A DNA stretch of 42,963 nt from a virus (taxonomy: Duplodnaviria > Heunggongvirae > Uroviricota > Caudoviricetes). This document shows, piece after piece, positions 16,865-25,430 of the stretch. The notes under the pieces were generated by a model that worked only from the letters and a program-made list of their open reading frames with translations, ran no database searches and had not been told where the DNA came from. The first letter of the stretch is position 1, and each line of letters opens with the position of its first letter. Position numbers and translations under genes: made by a program. The stretch lies in IMG/VR virus record IMGVR_UViG_2698536570_000009, positions 1 through 42,963 of that record; one strand, given 5' to 3'.

Positions 16865-17959
16865 ATGAACCTTGAAAACACAGTGAAATACCACTTCGCT
16901 AAATCCACACTGATTAGCGATTCTCCGCGCGCTACCGCCTCCGATTCACTGACCGGTACCGACATAATGGCTGCCATGGGCATGACGCAGGAACGCGCCG
17001 CAATGGGTTACAGCGCCTTCCTCGGCAAGATGGGCATAAGCAATAACGACCGGGATCGGGCGATCGGTCTGCTGGCTGAGTACGCGATGACAAAATGCGA
17101 CAAGGTTGCCGCACTGCGTAAGCTCGGTGCCGCGGTTAAACCTCAGGTGATGCACCAGTTGGCCACCTTCGCTTTTGAGGACTATTCCCGCAGCGCTGCC
17201 AGCGTGAAGCAGTGCGATTGTTGTGACGGTCAGGGGGTCAGGACCTGTATTGCTTCTCTGGAGCTTAAACCAGGCAAAATGCTTGCCCGACTCACGCGGC
17301 AAACCATCTGCACCTCCTCACCGAAGCGTGAAGAAATCATTATGACCAACGAATGGTTTTCTGACCGCCTTTGGGTATTCAAACTTACCGGAACGGCCAA
17401 AGCAGACCGGCTTCTTGAGATTTTTGCCTATGCCCGGCGTCGCTATGGCATTGAGCTGTTCGTCATAGATAACCTGGCTAAATGTGGTTTAGACGAAGAA
17501 GACTACACAGGTCAGAAAGACTTCATCGATACCCTTTGCGACTTCAAGAACGAACATAACTGTCACGTCCTGCTGGTTACCCATGCCAGAAAAACAAACG
17601 ACTCCGCTCCAACCGGAAAGATGGACGTAAAAGGCACCGGTGCTTTAACGGATATGCCCGACAACGTGATGGCCGTCTGGCGCAACATTCCCCGTGAGCT
17701 GGCGCAGAGAAAAGCGGACCGTATGGGTTATGAGAGCCTCGACAAAGACGAACAGGCCGCAATCAATCTTCCTGCCTCAATGATTCGCTTGTTGAAGCAA
17801 CGAGAGGGCGAAGGGTGGATCGGTGACATCGGAGCTAATTTCGACTCTCGCTCTCACCAGTTCCTGGAAGGCGAGAAAAAACCATTTAACTACCTGGTCG
17901 GTAAGCCGCAAAGCGAGTTTGATCTCGAGTGGGAAGCCAGCAACGTAACGAGGGTTTGA
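16865..17959 (+). CDS. chimeric ORF: lambda-Q-like N-terminal region (about aa 1-135) fused in frame to the C-terminal half of a DnaB-like RecA-fold helicase (Walker B present, no Walker A)
   Basis: N-terminus 'KYHFAKSTLISDSPRATASDSLTGTDIMAAMGM...ATFAFEDYSRSAA...CDCCDGQG' parallels recalled lambda Q; C-terminal 'LFVIDNLAKCG...HVLLVTHARKT...DVKGTGALTDMPDNVMAVWRN' parallels DnaB motifs ('LIVIDYLQL', 'DLRESGSIEQDADLIMFIYR'). An intact, different Q allele follows immediately. Confidence 0.6.
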   Translation: MNLENTVKYHFAKSTLISDSPRATASDSLTGTDIMAAMGMTQERAAMGYSAFLGKMGISNNDRDRAIGLLAEYAMTKCDKVAALRKLGAAVKPQVMHQLATFAFEDYSRSAASVKQCDCCDGQGVRTCIASLELKPGKMLARLTRQTICTSSPKREEIIMTNEWFSDRLWVFKLTGTAKADRLLEIFAYARRRYGIELFVIDNLAKCGLDEEDYTGQKDFIDTLCDFKNEHNCHVLLVTHARKTNDSAPTGKMDVKGTGALTDMPDNVMAVWRNIPRELAQRKADRMGYESLDKDEQAAINLPASMIRLLKQREGEGWIGDIGANFDSRSHQFLEGEKKPFNYLVGKPQSEFDLEWEASNVTRV

Positions 17960-17962
17960 GAT

Positions 17963-18799
17963 ATGAAACTTGAAGCTTCACTAAAACACTTTAGCCCTCA
18001 GGGTATGCACATCAGCGACGACGTGAAAGGAACCTCTCCGGACCGCCTTACAGGAACAGATGTAATGGCGGCAATTGGCACCACCAGCAGCCGTGCGCGC
18101 TTCGGACTGGCGGCGTTCTTCGGTAAAGCGGGAATCAGCAAAACGGATGAACAGCTCGCAGTTCAGGAGCTGGCGCGATATGCGATGGATGTCGCACCGA
18201 AGAATGTTCGCAAAGCAGCTGGTGGGCAGTTCGGATGGTGCATGCAGATGTTGGCACAATTTGCCTTTGCTGATTATTCACGTTCGGCGGCTACAAGCGT
18301 GACGTGTCACAGCTGCAGTGGTACCGGACGAACAACCCGCGAACAGATTACCCGCAAGGTTTCGTACCCATGGGGTAAAGCTCCATACTGGGCCTGCCGC
18401 TCTCGTGCTGTTCGACCGTCTGACTGGGAGCAGTGGATGGAGGTAACAGAGGTTGTACCGGCGGTCTGTGATGCTTGCGAAGGCAAGGGAACGATCAGCG
18501 CCCGTTGTCGTTGCGGCGGTAAAGGCGAGGTTCTAGACCGCAAGGCCACAAGCGAGCGCGGCGCGCCGGTGTTTAAAACCTGCGAGCGCTGCAGCGGAAA
18601 TGGATTTTCTGCGGTGCCGTCTACCGCAGCCTATAAAGTGATACTGAAGCGCGTTCCGGATCTGCACGTCAGAACATGGACTCGCAACTGGAAACCGTTT
18701 CTTGAGGCGCTGGTAAGCATTTGTCAGCAGGAGGAGGGAAACGCTGCAAGAGAATTTCAATCTGCAACCAGTTTAGGCGAAGAAGGTGACGAAATTTAG
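17963..18799 (+). CDS. late antiterminator Q (intact, 278 aa, extended zinc-finger region)
   Basis: Q-family blocks ('LTGTDVMAAIG', 'AQFAFADYSRSAA', Cys clusters 'CHSCSGTG', 'CDACEGKG', 'CRCGGKG', 'CERCSGNG'); followed by the candidate pR'/tR' unit. Confidence 0.85.
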   Translation: MKLEASLKHFSPQGMHISDDVKGTSPDRLTGTDVMAAIGTTSSRARFGLAAFFGKAGISKTDEQLAVQELARYAMDVAPKNVRKAAGGQFGWCMQMLAQFAFADYSRSAATSVTCHSCSGTGRTTREQITRKVSYPWGKAPYWACRSRAVRPSDWEQWMEVTEVVPAVCDACEGKGTISARCRCGGKGEVLDRKATSERGAPVFKTCERCSGNGFSAVPSTAAYKVILKRVPDLHVRTWTRNWKPFLEALVSICQQEEGNAAREFQSATSLGEEGDEI

Positions 18800-18889: not shown

Positions 18890-18909
18890 GCCCCTTGCGG
18901 GGCTTTTTT
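18890..18909. terminator. rho-independent terminator (tR'-like; also terminates the convergent minus-strand moron)
   Basis: GCCCC-TTGC-GGGGC hairpin followed by T6; an A-rich tract precedes it. Confidence 0.6.
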
Positions 18910-19321
18910 ATGGCAGCGAGTTAACGAAAGAACTGAAAAGGGCCTTATCTTTATTGCTAATTGATTTTTTCAAATGTAGTTGATGATTTAAAGGTTTAAA
19001 GTTTTCCTTTGTGAGATATATACATGCTTTCTCAAAACGATCCTGAAGGAATTGAAATCTTTCATTCAGCCTGGAAACTTTTAATCCTAATGACATGACC
19101 TTCTTCTCAGGAATATCGTCAGGATTGCAATTATTGAGTTCTTCCAGCACAAGGCGAATATCTCTTTCGAAGATTAGCGCTATGTTATAATCGTTGAGGA
19201 GGCATTCAGGATTACGAACAATGCCAATTACTTCGTCGATGAATTGTGGTTTTACATTATCCTCAGCATTTTCATCTTCGTTATCGGAAGGTTTTTGAGA
19301 CATAACATTCGACAACTGCAT
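18908..19321 (-). CDS. hypothetical moron protein in an AT-rich island, convergent with Q (137 aa from the SD-supported start; ORF-track version extends to 19528)
   Basis: AT-rich coding region; SD 'AGGAAG' 4-5 nt upstream of the ATG at 19319-19321; the longer 19528 start lacks an SD and overlaps the tRNA-like gene; acidic N-terminus, no family recognised. Confidence 0.45.
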   Translation of the reverse strand: MQLSNVMSQKPSDNEDENAEDNVKPQFIDEVIGIVRNPECLLNDYNIALIFERDIRLVLEELNNCNPDDIPEKKVMSLGLKVSRLNERFQFLQDRFEKACIYLTKENFKPLNHQLHLKKSISNKDKALFSSFVNSLP

Positions 19322-19506
19322 TTCTTCCTTGGTTTTCCTTCTGGGAAGTAAAACTTTTCCATCTCCTAAAGCAGCCATACGTTTCAAAGCTTGACTCCCG
19401 GCTCGGCCAACTACTATCGCAGGCTGAGAGGTCTGTAAAATGCAATCCCGAAACAGTTCGCAGGTAATAGTTAGAGCCTGCATAACGGTTTCGGGATTTT
19501 TTATTT

Positions 19507-19581
19507 GGGTCAGTCGTATAAAGGTCATTACGGAAGGCTGTTAACCTTCTTATCGTGGTTCGAGTCCACGCTGTCCCGCCA
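19507..19581 (+). tRNA. tRNA-like gene, Asn(GUU)-like anticodon arm, non-canonical 5' half (possible pseudo-tRNA)
   Basis: 3' half is canonical (T-arm CGTGG-TTCGAGT-CCACG, acceptor plus GCCA); anticodon stem-loop GAAGG-CUGUUAA-CCTTC; acceptor stem has one T-T mismatch and the D-stem is weak. Confidence 0.45.
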
Positions 19582-19584
19582 AAT

Positions 19585-19660
19585 TCGCCTGTAGCTCAGA
19601 GGAAAGAGCAACCGCCTTCTAAGCGGTTGGTCGCTGGTTCGAATCCAGCCAGACGAGCCA
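19585..19660 (+). tRNA. tRNA-Arg (anticodon UCU)
   Basis: Cloverleaf: D-arm GCTC-AGAGGAAA-GAGC, anticodon arm ACCGC-CTTCTAA-GCGGT, T-arm GCTGG-TTCGAAT-CCAGC, 3' CCA; one C-A mismatch in the acceptor stem. Confidence 0.7.
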
Positions 19661-20165
19661 AATTCTAATCTGGTGTAATTCCACCATTTCGAGGATGTCC
19701 TCGGTATGGTTACAATCCCGCCCCATCCCCTAGCTGTGTGGGATTTACCGCATTTGTGATGATGCCGATATGGTGCATAACTGACTCGCGATTAGGTTGT
19801 GTCGTCAGCTCCACGAAACGGAGTCCATAACAGCAAAAGCCACTACCATATTGCGCATAGTAACGGAATGACGCATACGGAATAGTGGAGTGGTTTTTGC
19901 GTTGTGGTGAATGTTCTGATGGCGTCGTAAAGCGATAGCCGTGAATGCCGGATAGCAGCACCGGCCACCACAAACCAAACCCACTACCTGGGACCCTTCG
20001 GCCAGAGAGCCGACATTGCCTTACCCTCATCTTCCTGGCTTGTCGCCAGGTTTTTTATCCCAGGCCCCGGGAACCATCATCGACACGCCTACTTGTTAAA
20101 TCGTCCCGAGGGCCTGCCCCCTTTCAAACACACAGCCCCCGCTTTTAAGCCGGAGGTTAGAGACT

Positions 20166-20507
20166 ATGAAAATGCATAACGATCCCCACTCCTGGACGGA
20201 GTTTATCGAACTACTCCACAGTTGGTGGCGTGGCGAAACGCCGATGGGTGCCGTATTGCTATCGGTTGTCATGGCCGCCATGCGAATCGCTTACGGCGGT
20301 GGCGGCTGGAAGAAAATGCTCCTTGAGGGGGCAATCTGCGGAGCTCTAACCCTTACCGCTGTGTCAGCTCTTGATTACTTTAACCTTCCACAGTCTCTGT
20401 CGATAGCTATCGGCGGCGCGCTAGGGTTTGTTGGCGTAGAGCAGGTTAAGGTTATGGCTTCCCGGGTGTTTAATTCTCGCTTTGGAGGCGGTGATGCAAA
20501 TCAGTGA
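20166..20507 (+). CDS. lambda-family holin (S-like) with dual-start Met1-Lys2-Met3
   Basis: 113 aa with three hydrophobic segments and a charged C-terminus; pattern parallels recalled lambda S; SD GGAGG upstream; first gene of the lysis cassette. Confidence 0.8.
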   Translation: MKMHNDPHSWTEFIELLHSWWRGETPMGAVLLSVVMAAMRIAYGGGGWKKMLLEGAICGALTLTAVSALDYFNLPQSLSIAIGGALGFVGVEQVKVMASRVFNSRFGGGDANQ

Positions 20508-20934
20508 TAAAGGCATTGCCCTGATCAAGCAATTCGAAGGCTGCAAACTCACCGCGTACCAGGACAGCGTCGGTGTATGGACGATCGGCTATGGCTGGAC
20601 TCAGCCTGTCGACGGGAAACCAATCCACGCCGGAATGGTGATTAAGCAGGAGACGGCGGAGCGATTGCTGAAGACCGGACTGGTCAGCTATGAAAGTGAC
20701 GTATCCCGCCTGGTTAAAGTTGGTCTGACTCAGGGGCAATTCGACGCCCTGGTGTCGTTCACGTATAACCTCGGAGCCCGATCTTTATCGACATCGACTC
20801 TCCTGCGAAAACTCAACGCCGGTGATTACGCTGGCGCAGCCGATGAGTTCCTGCGCTGGAATAAAGCTGGCGGTAAAGTCCTGAACGGACTGACCCGTCG
20901 GCGTGAGGCGGAGCGCGCTCTGTTCCTGCCGTGA
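20494..20934 (+). CDS. endolysin, T4-lysozyme-like (GH24) muramidase
   Basis: Catalytic E-x8-D-x5-T spacing in '[21 protein letters not shown]'; '[12 protein letters not shown]' block; SD GGAGG; no N-terminal SAR segment. Confidence 0.9.
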
Positions 20935-21401
20935 TTAGCGCACTGGTTAAGCGTTACTGGCTACAGTTGCTGGTGCTGGCGTTAATCGGCGTGCTGGCGT
21001 TCTTCGTTAACCACTACCGCGACAACGCCATCACTTACAGAGACCAGCGCGATAAGGCCACTGAGAAACTCCTCCTGGCGACCGCCACCATTAAAGACAT
21101 GCAGACCCGCCAGCGTGATGTCGCTGCACTGGATGCCAAATACACCGGAGAACTGGCTGATGCGAAAGAAACCATTGAGCGTCTGCATAGCGATGTCATT
21201 GCTGGCCGTAAGCGGCTGCAGCTCAACGCAAACTGTCCCGCGAACGGAACGACCAGCACCGGCGGCCTGGGCGATGTTACCGGCCCCCGACTTACTGACT
21301 CCGCTGAACGGGATTATTTCACCCTCAGAGAGCGAATCGTCACAGTGACGAAACAGGTTGGATATTTGCAGGAATACATCAAAGAGCAGTGCTTAAATTG
21401 A
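20931..21401 (+). CDS. Rz-like i-spanin
   Basis: GTG start overlapping the lysozyme stop; N-terminal TM ('[16 protein letters not shown]') then coiled-coil periplasmic domain; contains the embedded Rz1 frame. Confidence 0.8.
21160..21348 (+). CDS. Rz1-like o-spanin (lipoprotein) embedded in the +1 frame of Rz
   Basis: Lipobox 'LLAVSGC' after a short signal sequence; Pro-rich mature region; wholly within Rz. Confidence 0.7.
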
Positions 21402-21433
21402 TGTTAAATTAACCTTTTACATACGGAGGGGTT

Positions 21434-21838
21434 ATGCAAATAGATCAAGAATACCTTAAAGGTTTGCTCGAGGCTTTCGAGGCATCGGATTCACCTGATA
21501 CCGATATTATTCGATTAAATGATTTAGGGTTCAATTGTGAAACTGACACATTTGTGTTTCATATGCGTTTGCTTGAGGATAGAGGGCTGATTATCAGGAG
21601 TGATGGAGAGCCCGGCTTTGGTGCTATTCAGTCTTTAGACGGAATGACTCACTGGGCTGTAATGCCCTTGCGATTGACCGCGATGGGGCATGACTTCTTG
21701 GATGCTCTCCGTAACAAAGAGGTTTGGGCAACATTAAAAACCGGATTCAAAGATGCCAGTATGGGCACGCTGATGACAGTTTCGAAGGAGCTGTTTAACC
21801 GAGCTCTTGCTAAGCAACTTGATAAAATGTTCGACTAA
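21434..21838 (+). CDS. hypothetical moron protein after the lysis cassette (134 aa)
   Basis: AT-richer than neighbours; own terminator directly after the stop; no family recognised. Confidence 0.5.
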   Translation: MQIDQEYLKGLLEAFEASDSPDTDIIRLNDLGFNCETDTFVFHMRLLEDRGLIIRSDGEPGFGAIQSLDGMTHWAVMPLRLTAMGHDFLDALRNKEVWATLKTGFKDASMGTLMTVSKELFNRALAKQLDKMFD

Positions 21839-21859
21839 CCGCCTACGGGCGGTTTTTTA
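21839..21859 (+). terminator. rho-independent terminator
   Basis: CCGCC-TACG-GGCGG hairpin followed by TTTTTTATT immediately after the stop codon. Confidence 0.6.
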
Positions 21860-21914
21860 TTGTCAACTTTATGAGCAAACTGATCTTAATTACTGTAACT
21901 AGGTGGTCAATGAT

Positions 21915-22556
21915 ATGGCAACGCTTAAGGACCTTTCCAGTCAGTTAAGACAGCTGCAGAAGCAAATACCGTTTGCGACTGCCCAGGCTATGACTAAAGT
22001 GGTTCGCCAGATAGAAGCGGCCCAAAAAACAGCATTTGAGCGGAAGCTGGATAATCCAACACCTTTTACAGTTAAATCGGTAGGGTCAGTTGGTGCCAGG
22101 AAAAACAGCCTTCGTGCGAAGGTGTTTGTTCGTGATACTGCTGCTGGCTACCTTGAACCCTTCGAGTTCGGCGGAGCGCACAAGCTTAATGGTGGTGCTT
22201 TGCTTAACCCGAAAGACATAAAGCTTAATAAATACGGCAACCTGCCGCGTAATAAGCTCTCTCAGCTCAAAGCAAAGCCAAACGTATTTATTGGTGACGT
22301 TGGTGGCGTGAATGCCGTGTGGCAGAGAAAAAAGCCGAAAACCAAAAAAGGGAAGAAACGGGCAAAACGTTCTCCGAACGGCACGCGCAGAGACAAGATT
22401 AAGCAACCTGCACCAAAATTGCTTATTCGGTTTGGAGACGCGCTTCCAGTCAAACCAACGCTCGGCTATATGGACAGGGCAAACACCATGGCCAACGCAT
22501 TGTTACCCTCAGCGCTGCACCAGGCGATTGCTGAGGCGATCAGCTCGGCCAGATAG
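21915..22556 (+). CDS. hypothetical phage protein with Lys/Arg-rich segment (213 aa)
   Basis: ATG 21915 with SD AGGTGG (the ORF-track start 21903 is a GTG); basic stretch 'QRKKPKTKKGKKRAKRSPNGTRRDK'; sits just upstream of the terminase-site repeats. Confidence 0.5.
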   Translation: MATLKDLSSQLRQLQKQIPFATAQAMTKVVRQIEAAQKTAFERKLDNPTPFTVKSVGSVGARKNSLRAKVFVRDTAAGYLEPFEFGGAHKLNGGALLNPKDIKLNKYGNLPRNKLSQLKAKPNVFIGDVGGVNAVWQRKKPKTKKGKKRAKRSPNGTRRDKIKQPAPKLLIRFGDALPVKPTLGYMDRANTMANALLPSALHQAIAEAISSAR

Positions 22557-22644
22557 CCCCCCCAGGGATTTTGGGTCCTTCCTGAGCCTTTTGTAAGGCA
22601 CGGGCATTGCGCGCCGCGGTGTTTTCCTAGCTACAACTTTCAGA

Positions 22645-22796
22645 TTTGTGTCCCATGTCCCACCTCTGGCGATCATTACGGACACCTCGCCAGCTCTGGC
22701 TATTCCAGTTTATTCCAGTGGGACATTCTGGTGGGACATGGCAAAAATGTCCCAGGCGAATGTCCCACCCCAGAAAATGTCCCAGGTGATGTCCCA
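22645..22796. repeat. array of eight TGTCCCA / TGGGACA heptamer copies immediately upstream of terminase small subunit (candidate cosB-like binding sites)
   Basis: 'TGTCCCATGTCCCA', 'GTGGGACATTCTGGTGGGACATGG', 'ATGTCCCAGGCGAATGTCCCA', 'ATGTCCCAGGTGATGTCCCATG'; the last copy overlaps the small-subunit ATG. Confidence 0.5.
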
Positions 22797-23365
22797 TGAC
22801 CACGATGAACCAGAGTCAGTACGCACAACATTCAGGTGTGGATCGCAAAACAATTGGCCGGTGGATTAAAGCCGGGCGCTTCATTGTGATGGACGGAGAC
22901 CTGATTGACGTAGAGGCCAGCGATGCGGCATTGAAGAAAAACCGCGATGGCAAAGACCCGCGCGCCTCGAACGCGAAGAAAAAGAAAACTCCCGTCGTTA
23001 GCGATAACGATGATGACGGTGATGAAATCAATAAAACTGTCCGCCAGATAATGCTCACTGAAGGGGCAGATCTTTCGAGAGAGGAAGCGGGACGTATCCG
23101 CGAGAATTACATGGCCCTGCAGGCAAAGCTGCAGTATGAAAAAGACAGCGGCCAGCTTATTGAGCTGACAGCAGCCGAGGAGGTTTTATTCAACGCCTTT
23201 CGCCAACAGCGTGATGCCTGGCTTAACTGGCCGTCCAGGGTGGCGCCGCTAATGGCTGCTGATCTGGATGTACCGGCGGACAGGATGACAGAGGTGCTGA
23301 TTGAACATGTCCACAAACACATCTCAGTCCTCGGAGAGCCAGAGTTTAACCCGGCAGAAGATTGA
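22796..23365 (+). CDS. terminase small subunit (Nu1-like, N-terminal HTH)
   Basis: 189 aa; N-terminal 'NQSQYAQHSGVDRKTIGRWIKAG' HTH resembles recalled Nu1 'NKKQLADIFGASIRTIQNWQEQG'; directly precedes and overlaps the large subunit. Confidence 0.7.
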   Translation: MTTMNQSQYAQHSGVDRKTIGRWIKAGRFIVMDGDLIDVEASDAALKKNRDGKDPRASNAKKKKTPVVSDNDDDGDEINKTVRQIMLTEGADLSREEAGRIRENYMALQAKLQYEKDSGQLIELTAAEEVLFNAFRQQRDAWLNWPSRVAPLMAADLDVPADRMTEVLIEHVHKHISVLGEPEFNPAED

Positions 23366-25430
23366 GCGTCTTGAATTAAGCGTCCGCAAAGGCTGGACAC
23401 CCCCGCCGCGTATCAGTGTGCCGCAGTGGGCAGATGACTATCGTAAGCTGGCAAAAGAGGCTGGGAGCACTTCGGGAAACTGGGAAACATCGACGGTAGA
23501 AATTGCCCGCGGACCGATGCTTGCCGCGACGGAGTCCGGGGTTCATATCATCACTGTAATGTGCTGTACCCAGTTGATGAAGACAGCACTGCTGGAAAAC
23601 CTTTTTGGCTATTTTGCCCACCTCGATCCTTGTCCGATACTGCTGCTGCAGCCGAAAGAAGAAGCCGCTGAACAGTTTTCGAAAGAGCGTATTAGCCCGC
23701 TGGTAAGGGTGACGCCGGTACTGCGTAAAATCATCGGTGATTCGAAACAGAAAAGCTCGAAAGAAACCATTCTTTACAAGGCATTCACTGGCGGATTTCT
23801 GGCGCTGGCGGGTGCTGGTAGCCCTGATAACCTTGCGCGTCGTCCGATTCGTGTCCTGCTGGCGGATGAAGTGGACAAGTACCCGATAACCCGCGAAGGC
23901 GATCCAATTGCGCTGGCCGAAGAGCGTACAGCGACATTTGGCCTGACCTGGCTGTCTGTACGCGCCTGTTCGCCGACGGTGGAGGATGAGAGCCGCATTG
24001 CTGACAGCTACGCCGACTCCGATCAGCGCCGGGCATCTGTGGTTTGCCCGCACTGTGGCCACCGCCAGTTCCCCGACTTTTTCAAACACGTTCAGTGGCC
24101 GAAAGAGGGAGATAAACACCTGACTAAATCGGCGATGCTCTATTGCGAATGCTGTGGTAGTGGCTGGTCCGAAGGACAGCGCCTCAGAGCTCTGCACACT
24201 ATTCGATGGCATCAGACGCGCCCATTTGAGTGCTGCGGGGAGCGGCACTCACCGCTGATGGATTATGACCTTGCCTGGCGGGCGGCAGACGAGGGCAGCG
24301 TTGAAAAGGTCTGGCAATGGTCAGAGTCGGAACGGCATGCGGTCTATCGCGCAATCTGCCCCTCCTGTGGAAAGGAGGCAGTCGATAACCACCACGCGGG
24401 GTACCAGGCATCCAAGCTTTTCAGCCCCTGGCAAAAAGATAAGCCGTCGGATATTGCGAAAAAATATATCGATGCGAAGGGCGATCCGGATAAGGAACAG
24501 GCGTGGTGGAATACCCAGATGGGGCTTCCGCACCGACCTAATCATGGGAAACAGCTCCCTGTTGATGTTCTGCTGGCGCGCCGGGAAATATTTCCGGCCG
24601 TCGTTCCGGACGGGGTGGCATTGTTAACAGCTGGAGTTGATACCCAGGACGATCGCTTCGAAATTACGATCACCGGCTGGGGGAGAGATGAAGAATCGTG
24701 GTCGGTCGCGCATGACGTTATTTATGGTGACCTTGAGACGGAAGAACCCTGGAAGCGACTGGATGCATACCTGAAACAGATCTGGCGACGTGGTGACGGG
24801 CGCGGCCTGAATATCATGGCAACGTGCATGGACTCCGGTGGCCACCATACGCAGAAGGTATACGAATTCGCCAAAGAGCGTCTTGGCCGTCGTGTCTGGG
24901 CAATTAAGGGGGAGTCTGCACAGGGAGGTAAACGCAATCCTGTCTGGCCGACCAAACGACCATCATCGAAAAGCAAAGCCAGTTTCCGCCCTGTCATTCT
25001 GGGGGTTAACTCAGCGAAAGACGTGATACGCGGTCGCCTGCATCTTGAGCCACCCAAACCTGGCGCCGCCGCTGCGGGTTATATGCATTTTCCTGACGAT
25101 CGCGATCTCGGGTACTTCAATCAGCTGCTGGCGGAGCGACTGGTTTACAAAGTCATTTCCGGGCAGCGGTACAGTATCTGGGAAGCAATACCAGGACGAG
25201 CTAACGAAGCGCTTGACTGCCTCGTTTACAGCTATGCCGCGCTGTGCGGTCTCAAACATATGGGGTTAAAACTCAACGTCCGGGCCGCCAACCTCGAAGC
25301 CGATCCGGATAAGTTCCTGCCAGCGCCAGTTGGACAGGAAGAAAAAATCAATTACGAGCTGCCGGGTGCGGTTATTGAAGAACCAGCGCCGGTCAAACGT
25401 AAGCGAATATCGCAACTCCTGCCGAAATAA
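23301..25430 (+). CDS. terminase large subunit (lambda GpA family)
   Basis: 709 aa; GpA-like blocks ('VPQWADDY', 'LTAGVDTQDDRFEITITGWG', 'NEALDCLVYSYAA'); Cys-rich zinc-finger region. Confidence 0.9.
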   Translation: MNMSTNTSQSSESQSLTRQKIERLELSVRKGWTPPPRISVPQWADDYRKLAKEAGSTSGNWETSTVEIARGPMLAATESGVHIITVMCCTQLMKTALLENLFGYFAHLDPCPILLLQPKEEAAEQFSKERISPLVRVTPVLRKIIGDSKQKSSKETILYKAFTGGFLALAGAGSPDNLARRPIRVLLADEVDKYPITREGDPIALAEERTATFGLTWLSVRACSPTVEDESRIADSYADSDQRRASVVCPHCGHRQFPDFFKHVQWPKEGDKHLTKSAMLYCECCGSGWSEGQRLRALHTIRWHQTRPFECCGERHSPLMDYDLAWRAADEGSVEKVWQWSESERHAVYRAICPSCGKEAVDNHHAGYQASKLFSPWQKDKPSDIAKKYIDAKGDPDKEQAWWNTQMGLPHRPNHGKQLPVDVLLARREIFPAVVPDGVALLTAGVDTQDDRFEITITGWGRDEESWSVAHDVIYGDLETEEPWKRLDAYLKQIWRRGDGRGLNIMATCMDSGGHHTQKVYEFAKERLGRRVWAIKGESAQGGKRNPVWPTKRPSSKSKASFRPVILGVNSAKDVIRGRLHLEPPKPGAAAAGYMHFPDDRDLGYFNQLLAERLVYKVISGQRYSIWEAIPGRANEALDCLVYSYAALCGLKHMGLKLNVRAANLEADPDKFLPAPVGQEEKINYELPGAVIEEPAPVKRKRISQLLPK

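Follow-up and report, generated by a model that had tools for sequence, protein, structure and literature searches.

A DUF2513 gene as the probable cargo of a swappable moron slot between the lysis and packaging genes of an Escherichia coli prophage

Results and Discussion

A Cargo Gene behind the Lysis Cassette

The DNA analysed here is a 42,963-nucleotide (nt) stretch of a Caudoviricetes genome (IMG/VR record IMGVR_UViG_2698536570_000009, positions 1 to 42,963), hereafter called the window, and it corresponds to a prophage in the chromosome of Escherichia coli AW1.7 (NZ_CP073624.1; 100% identity over the tested stretch). The gene under study encodes a 134-amino-acid (aa) protein of the DUF2513 family and is located between Rz, which closes the lysis cassette, and the packaging genes (Table 1). 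Based on the results presented below, it is probably the cargo of a swappable moron cassette in this lambdoid-type prophage, and its product would be a non-enzymatic binding protein. That the gene is an accessory cassette, and not a part of the lysis or packaging machinery, is held with high confidence. An earlier note on this DNA, made from the letters alone, had described it as a post-lysis moron, and this description is supported by the presence and absence of the gene among relatives, its mosaic transfer, its own terminator, its deviant base composition and the lack of a lysis or packaging match.

The gene starts 32 nt past the stop codon of Rz. The guanine–cytosine (GC) content drops to 0.40–0.46 over positions 21300–21900, as compared with 0.56–0.58 in the lysis genes and 0.54–0.56 from 22300 onward, which bears out the statement of the earlier note that the gene lies in AT-richer DNA directly after the spanins. 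Purifying selection on the gene is strong: the ratio of nonsynonymous to synonymous substitution rates (dN/dS) is 0.02–0.05 in comparison with homologues of 87–97% amino acid identity. Taken together with an AlphaFold2 model of high confidence (predicted local distance difference test, pLDDT, of 90), this ratio indicates that the open reading frame (ORF) is a real gene.

Accessory Status and Mosaic Exchange

Of 5426 complete E. coli genomes, 22 contain the 451-base-pair (bp) cargo region, in every case with an identity of 99.3–100%, whereas the downstream packaging region is common to 60 genomes. Prophages that share the 217-aa gene next to the cargo and the terminase genes hold other small genes in the slot (L005–L008); the alternative contents seen in relatives are two hypothetical genes, a DUF1378 gene with one hypothetical gene, a KilA-N gene with two hypothetical genes, and a single 99-aa hypothetical gene. 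On the lysis side, Enterobacter phage ENT1 carries an Rz gene that is 85% identical to that of the window, and no DUF2513 gene. The comparison with relatives by which the earlier note had proposed to check its reading thus finds the cargo gene in some of them, and other small genes or none in others. Neither a match to a lysis or packaging family nor an obligatory linkage to such genes was found.

The boundaries of the exchanged segment are visible in two E. coli strains. In ECCWS199, the cassette (21402–21870) is 99.8% identical to that of the window, as against 76% identity for Rz and 85.5% for the next gene. In MLI104K1, the slot is occupied by a different, 92-aa cargo gene, which is preceded by the promoter sequence TTGCAA-17-TGgTATAAT and followed by the terminator of the window; the homology to the window resumes at position 21836, i.e., at the stop codon and terminator. 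These homology breaks indicate that the cargo ORF is what has been swapped, its left neighbour being a promoter and its right neighbour a terminator. At the level of sequence comparison, they demonstrate that the cassette 21402–21862 moves between diverged prophages as a unit, and that the terminator belongs to the slot. The phage records matching the window DNA cover the Rz part only, and the packaging side has no match among phage records.

The Slot in Other Viral Contigs

Homologues with 49–100% identity were located in 80 IMG/VR contigs. In all of them, the gene has the orientation of the late genes; 72 contigs have lysis genes before it and/or packaging genes after it, 52 have both, and in 27 loci the homologue follows Rz at a distance of about 33 nt. 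The flanking families are varied: among the representatives checked with Pfam there are three holin families, a GH19 lysozyme, Terminase_4 and Terminase_2 small subunits, TerL and HNH, and the remaining terminase-sized flank clusters were labelled by their length and sequence. Since the gene has this position next to lysis and terminase families that are unrelated to one another, it appears to have no cognate partner in either module. A few homologues were found elsewhere, namely close to xis/int (phage Chlobot and a prophage on an F plasmid) or in a nin-like region (L153–156).

Upstream of most homologues there is a conserved non-coding element, GGCATTACAG-CAGGCA-TTCACT-GAG-TGCCTG-TGATAATGcTAAATTA. 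An exact scan detected the full element in 53 viral contigs (L164–L216), in 19 of which a DUF2513 gene stands behind it. In the other contigs, at least seven unrelated cargo genes stand behind the same element, and here too their place is between the lysis genes and the terminase genes; in 25 of 30 cases, the first cargo gene has a terminator after it. This alternative cargo comprises genes for a BamE-like lipoprotein of 101 aa, a CoiA-nuclease-like protein of 177 aa, a DUF6236 protein of 214 aa, a 158-aa protein, a family of 98–103 aa, and several proteins of 163–187 aa with an N-terminal transmembrane helix. None of these genes has a PADLOC match, with the exception of one faint match to a 2TM effector model. 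As the same element precedes unrelated cargo genes, the promoter and the terminator are best regarded as belonging to a general slot.

Terminator, Promoter and Leader

The right boundary of the slot is formed by an intrinsic terminator; that a strong terminator follows the gene immediately had been claimed in the earlier note. The terminator consists of a 7-bp stem with five G–C pairs, a 4-nt loop and a T-rich tail, and the stem overlaps the TAA stop codon of the cargo gene. The predicted folding energy of the region is −13.9 kcal/mol (z = −2.84), a value equalled by one of 200 shuffled sequences. An intrinsic terminator was found behind the homologue in 68 of 79 loci, as opposed to 138 of 1029 (13%) other genes in the same loci, and the terminators represent at least eight distinct hairpin sequences.

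On the left, the window carries a candidate extended −10 promoter, TGtTAAATT, directly after the Rz stop codon. When 35 non-redundant upstream regions were aligned, the TG, the TA and the last T of the motif TGnTAnnnT proved to be 90–100% conserved, while positions 3–5 of the hexamer are variable, a pattern that points to an extended −10 promoter. In 32 of 34 regions, the motif precedes the start codon by 16–30 nt; it was found upstream of 33 of 45 unique DUF2513 genes versus 33 of 1007 other ORFs, and once in the window, where 0.22 occurrences are expected.

In its complete form, the slot element spans about 50 bp (consensus GGCATTACAGCAGGCATTCACTGAGTGCCTGTGATAATGCTAAATTA): the arms of an inverted repeat, CAGGCA-N9-TGCCTG, enclose a −35-like TTCACT, and two extended −10 motifs that overlap each other come next. 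A second promoter type, the TTGCAA-17-TGgTATAAT mentioned above, serves the slot in L007 and L133. The window retains only positions 21402–21410 of the full element, TTCACT and the bracketing inverted repeat being replaced by the coding sequence of Rz. Accordingly, no acceptable −35 was found in the window, the stretch 16–18 nt upstream being Rz coding sequence, and matches to the CAGGCA-N9-TGCCTG repeat in the window do not exceed chance (five with two mismatches; 2.45 expected). Since both the −35 and the inverted repeat are missing, the gene's own promoter is probably weak in the window, and transcripts are at least as likely to arise by late read-through from Rz. Judged from its sequence, the candidate promoter has about an even chance of being functional there.

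Several other interpretations of the element were considered. The inverted repeat might have been an autoregulatory operator of the cargo protein, which is predicted to be a winged-helix protein (see below); this was rejected, as the element also precedes at least seven unrelated cargo genes. A Fur, LexA or CRP site, assessed by eye against the consensus sequences, was likewise rejected: the spacing or half-sites disagree, and the bases that matter show no conservation. No Rfam match was found near the upstream element or the leader.

During lytic growth, the Q-antiterminated late transcript would extend from Rz into the cargo gene; we infer this read-through from the result of the window scan, in which no terminator-like site was found between Rz and the cargo gene. 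In the lysogen, transcription would start from the gene's own extended −10, and the terminator would keep it out of the structural genes. The same arrangement could also be that of an ordinary late-operon gene, which serves the phage's own lytic cycle from the Q-dependent transcript only, for instance by adjusting lysis or packaging, or by safeguarding progeny or DNA at a late stage of infection, with the terminator and the AT-richness being incidental. The position of the gene on the strand of Rz, the short distance to Rz, the lack of an intervening terminator and of a −35, the late-strand position by lysis and/or packaging genes in 72 of the 80 contigs and the spacing of about 33 nt after Rz in 27 loci are all in its favour. 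However, most relatives with the same Rz or packaging module do without the cargo gene, no cognate partner is evident across the unrelated lysis and terminase families, and some homologues reside in early regions (xis/int in Chlobot and the nin-like region of L153–156). As the promoter motif and terminator are, in addition, conserved around the gene, and no lysis or packaging family is matched, the late-operon explanation is considered quite improbable.

The segment between the −10 motif and the start codon forms an inverted repeat, the 3′ arm of which contains the Shine–Dalgarno sequence. The predicted leader hairpin has an energy of −5.7 kcal/mol in the window and of −6 to −13 kcal/mol in relatives (median z = −2.6). 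The 5′ and 3′ arms of one and the same leader pair better than arms swapped between sequences (−9.49 versus −8.04 kcal/mol), and none of 5000 permutations reaches the observed value; the leader arms co-vary between cassettes. As the 5′ arm begins right after the −10, the hairpin could form only in late transcripts, which read through from upstream. Its effect may be to mask translation from these transcripts, or it may be exerted at the DNA level.

Protein Family and Predicted Fold

The earlier note had described a 134-aa protein of unrecognised family. The length is correct, but the protein does belong to a named family, the function of which is unassigned in the databases: it matches Pfam DUF2513 (PF10711; 41.1 bits versus a cut-off of 29.6; E-value, 2.5e-10) with residues 5–110 on positions 4–99 of the 100-position model, it matches PHROG 585, "unknown function" (E-value, 3.4e-28; residues 1–131), and it is listed in RefSeq as "DUF2513 domain-containing protein" (WP_001165319.1). 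No holin, endolysin, spanin, terminase or HNH family was matched in Pfam, PHROG or NCBIfam, and the sequence contains no signal peptide or lipobox. The hidden Markov model (HMM) and structure searches, which had been proposed alongside the moron reading, thus yielded a DUF2513/PHROG 585 assignment and a winged-helix model, and no lysis or packaging family.

The homologue search returned 115 close homologues, mainly from Enterobacterales. A family profile built from 53 homologues of 44–90% identity matches 1998 representative proteins (304 at E ≤ 1e-10), nearly all of them stand-alone proteins of 130–140 aa. Residues Y7, F40, H43, L79-R80-L81-T82, G85-H86 and W98 are invariant in the 53 homologues.

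The AlphaFold2 model is confident (pLDDT, 90.1; predicted template modelling score, 0.80) and displays a winged helix-turn-helix with helices at residues 5–17, 25–30 and 38–49 and a four-strand wing at residues 53–81, followed by three C-terminal helices (residues 83–133). In this model, H43 is placed in the third helix, whereas L79-R80-L81-T82 and G85-H86 are found at the wing-to-helix junction. The Foldseek matches are generic winged-helix regulators only, MarR and HosA. The search of viral models in BFVD returned only uncharacterised and YjcQ-like winged helices, and no relative in the PDB was detected by sequence, either with the single sequence or with the family profile. It is very likely that the protein is a winged-helix binder.

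The nearest Pfam neighbour is the prophage-associated YjcQ (PF09639). Several DUF2513 homologues also match YjcQ, and phage YjcQ models are among the best fold matches in BFVD, whereas the window protein itself has no YjcQ match at E ≤ 0.1. YjcQ is equally uncharacterised, so the relation provides no function. The Gifsy defence gene gipd474 (PMC12724215) encodes an ATPase-domain protein and has no relation to the cargo gene.

The fold is shared with the PadR, MarR and HxlR regulators, which brings up the possibility that the protein is an ordinary dimeric transcription factor of the PadR/MarR kind, reprogramming host or prophage genes in the lysogen and binding a palindromic operator with helix 38–49 and the wing residue R80. 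The resemblance is limited, however: only 70–90 residues superpose, the three conserved C-terminal helices are unmatched, and there is no membership in the Pfam or NCBIfam families of these regulators at E ≤ 0.1, PadR and MarR HMMs included. The window protein is acidic (isoelectric point, 4.77; family median, 5.19), and conserved basic residues are scarce in the elements that would read DNA. Neither an operator nor a conserved divergent target gene or neighbour was found, and the sole conserved inverted repeat nearby belongs to the slot promoter, precedes unrelated cargo as well and is not above chance in the window. A DNA-binding transcription factor acting on host genes is thus regarded as rather unlikely.

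Possible Links to Conflict and Defence

A different function is suggested by longer homologues, in which DUF2513 is followed by C-terminal domains matching defence models. These fusions include P0124 (CAP12/Pycsar-type TIR, PDC-S35/PycTIR), P0195 (PDC-S66, E-value 1.8e-57; ThsB, E-value 1.8e-35), P0201 (PDC-S60, E-value 2e-28), and P0186, P0120 and P0169 (AbiTi and PDC-M14B). The N-terminal DUF2513 module is what the window protein has in common with these defence candidates; in P0124 and P0120 it aligns over residues 1–131 or 1–133, the C-terminal helices included. The window protein ends where the effector domain of the fusions would begin and, therefore, has no effector. The architecture of DUF2513 with an AbiT-like domain occurs in about 20 clusters, the C-terminal module is also found behind AbiTii-type N-termini, and one protein joins AbiEi_4 to DUF2513. 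These architectures suggest that DUF2513 can serve as a recognition or regulatory module of abortive-infection proteins.

In terms of genomic context, a stand-alone copy lies beside TIR_2 and PIN/VapC genes in one genome, and another was found in a Dcm/Vsr island. Each plasmid copy that was inspected belongs to a prophage or to a phage-plasmid. A more distant DUF2513 gene (L219) is carried by the E. coli plasmid pABWA45_1, an F plasmid with an integrated prophage in which the gene has xis/int as neighbours; with this plasmid copy and a prophage copy, strain ABWA45 has two DUF2513 genes. Another distant gene (L220) resides on Klebsiella IncFIB plasmids of about 110 kb, which resemble phage-plasmids in their size and gene content.

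According to the mechanism that we propose, the protein has no enzymatic domain and would bind a nucleic-acid or protein target via the winged helix and the conserved C-terminal helices. It may act as a regulator or sensor in phage–host or phage–phage conflict, in the manner of superinfection immunity, a role that is slightly favoured over ordinary regulation of host genes. The conflict-related role itself is tentative, its probability being somewhat below even, and a number of observations weigh against this interpretation or against parts of it. Fusions are few, about seven among the best 150 representatives (1998 proteins were matched in total), and the window protein itself matches no NCBIfam model and no PADLOC model (PADLOC-DB v2, E ≤ 0.1). 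Outside the enterobacterial phages, the neighbours are heterogeneous, with many housekeeping genes: 150 neighbours from 49 non-enterobacterial genomes span 109 Pfam families, and only a few of these 150 match defence models in the PADLOC scan, each of them once. As the fold matches are generic, they specify no target, and the winged-helix part, with 15 acidic and 6 basic residues and with R80, in the wing, as its only invariant basic residue, is atypical of a DNA binder. The literature search retrieved no paper on the DUF2513 family, the name occurring once, in an unrelated marker list. Finally, the sigma-70 consensus scan, which requires both hexamers and for this reason reports none, found no promoter on the plus strand, and the gene is only 32 nt away from Rz; expression in the lysogen would thus depend on the extended −10 by itself. 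A search for a conserved partner gene or operon found none in 60 species-level genomes, in Pfam and PADLOC scans of the 150 neighbours or in three further contexts; fusion is the one association that recurs.

Another way to account for the effector-less form is that stand-alone DUF2513 is a decoy or anti-defence protein, which disarms DUF2513-TIR or DUF2513-AbiT-like proteins, either by capturing their trigger or by assembling with them into inactive mixed oligomers. DUF2513 is the N-terminal module of several effector fusions matching defence models, and stand-alone copies on phages and phage-plasmids would be consistent with this. However, a protein expressed from the tail of the late operon, or from a promoter active in the lysogen, comes at a poor time to counter defences upon infection. 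Environmental metagenomes are the main source of the fusions, none of which was seen in Enterobacterales, and stand-alone copies also occur in chromosomal, non-phage contexts. The decoy explanation is consequently very improbable.

A broader scenario is unlikely as a whole. In this scenario, DUF2513 would be the sensing or targeting module of abortive-infection immunity, being fused in environmental bacteria to TIR, ThsB-like, PDC-S60-like or AbiT-like effectors, the stand-alone copies of prophages and phage-plasmids would be effector-less superinfection-exclusion proteins that bind and block a component of an incoming phage, or decoys, and the slot, with its at least eight unrelated and mostly uncharacterised cargo genes, would be an unmined hotspot of phage-conflict genes.

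Comparison with Known Morons

The moron concept is that of Juhala, Hendrix and colleagues, with lambda bor and HK97 gp15 as lambdoid examples. Like these, the window gene is an extra gene between otherwise adjacent genes, with presence and absence among relatives and mosaic transfer; deviant base composition, an own terminator, a promoter-like element and the place after Rz/Rz1 and before the packaging genes are further common traits. The earlier note had pointed out that lambda carries bor, and other lambdoid phages carry conversion genes, at this place. The parallel holds for the position and does not extend to homology, strand or type of product. The sole Pfam match at E ≤ 0.1 is DUF2513, so there is no sequence relation to bor. 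Lambda bor lies on the strand opposite to the late operon and encodes a lipoprotein, whereas the window gene is located on the late-operon strand, its promoter is cut down to the extended −10, and its product is predicted to be a cytoplasmic winged-helix protein and not a lipoprotein or membrane protein.

Genomic Setting and Other Features of the Window

The order of the AW1.7 prophage is as follows: lambdoid early genes, a Q-type antiterminator, two tRNA genes, the lysis cassette, a lambda-like head module, and a Mu-like contractile tail module. The features surrounding the cargo gene are given in Table 1.

Table 1. Coordinates of the cargo gene, its control elements and the flanking genes in the window.
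Feature	Position	Strand	Details
Holin	20166–20507		PF05106; lysis cassette
Lysozyme	20482–20934		PF00959; lysis cassette
Rz spanin	20931–21401	+	PF03245, E-value 1.3e-42; last lysis gene, left flank of the cargo gene
Rz1 ORF	21115–21348		Embedded in Rz; LAVSGC lipobox
Candidate extended −10 promoter	21402–21410	+	TGtTAAATT; directly after the Rz stop codon
Leader inverted repeat	21411–21433	+	AACCUUUU...GGAGGGGUU; 3′ arm contains GGAGGGG
Shine–Dalgarno sequence	21425–21431	+	GGAGGGG; 3–9 nt upstream of the cargo start codon
Cargo gene, DUF2513 protein	21434–21838	+	ATG start; 134 aa
Intrinsic terminator	21837–21862	+	AACCGCC-TACG-GGCGGTT, then TTTTATTG; right boundary of the cargo slot
217-aa gene	21903–22556	+	PHROG 1924 "minor tail protein", E-value 1.2e-60; right flank, only gene between the cargo gene and the terminase genes
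Putative small terminase	22796–23365		189 aa
GpA-type large terminase	23301–25430		RefSeq annotation of close relatives and our own reading

The 217-aa gene on the right flank of the cargo is kept with the packaging/head module and is also present in relatives without DUF2513. It has no match in Pfam or NCBIfam, and its location upstream of the terminase genes, with which it travels, is an odd place for a tail protein. Between this gene and the putative small terminase there is a non-coding gap of 239 bp (22557–22795), the position of which is occupied in L006, L007, L008 and L217 by a 167-aa gene on the opposite strand (WP_001472855.1). The gap may be a second variable slot, and it is possibly the cos region.

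Upstream of the lysis cassette, a terminator-like hairpin, CCTGGC...GCCAGG followed by T6, is found within 20034–20060, about 115 nt before the holin start and at the position of lambda tR′; a tR′-like terminator ahead of the holin (20034–20050) fits a Q-dependent late operon. Genes for tRNA-Asn and tRNA-Arg (about 19507–19660; RefSeq annotation) lie between Q and the holin. Another moron candidate is an AT-rich gene (GC content, 0.35–0.40; PHROG 7003) on the minus strand at 18908–19528, between the Q-type antiterminator and the tRNA genes. In the Q region, a truncated antitermination gene and a truncated AAA ATPase gene (RefSeq; about 16865–17959) are located directly upstream of the intact 278-aa antiterminator (17963–18799), and they look like a recombination or insertion scar.

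Implications

A textbook-type moron with a DUF cargo changes no concept. What the analysis adds is that a family of about 2000 representative proteins, uncharacterised so far, gains a confident predicted fold, a mobile-cassette context and a testable link to effectors of the TIR/AbiT type. The inverted repeat of the promoter element points to a common regulator of moron expression. Moreover, the slot of enterobacterial temperate phages can be recognised by its conserved boundaries, a promoter that combines the inverted repeat and the extended −10 at its left end and an intrinsic terminator at its right end, and these can serve to collect more cargo genes, the majority of which have no known match.

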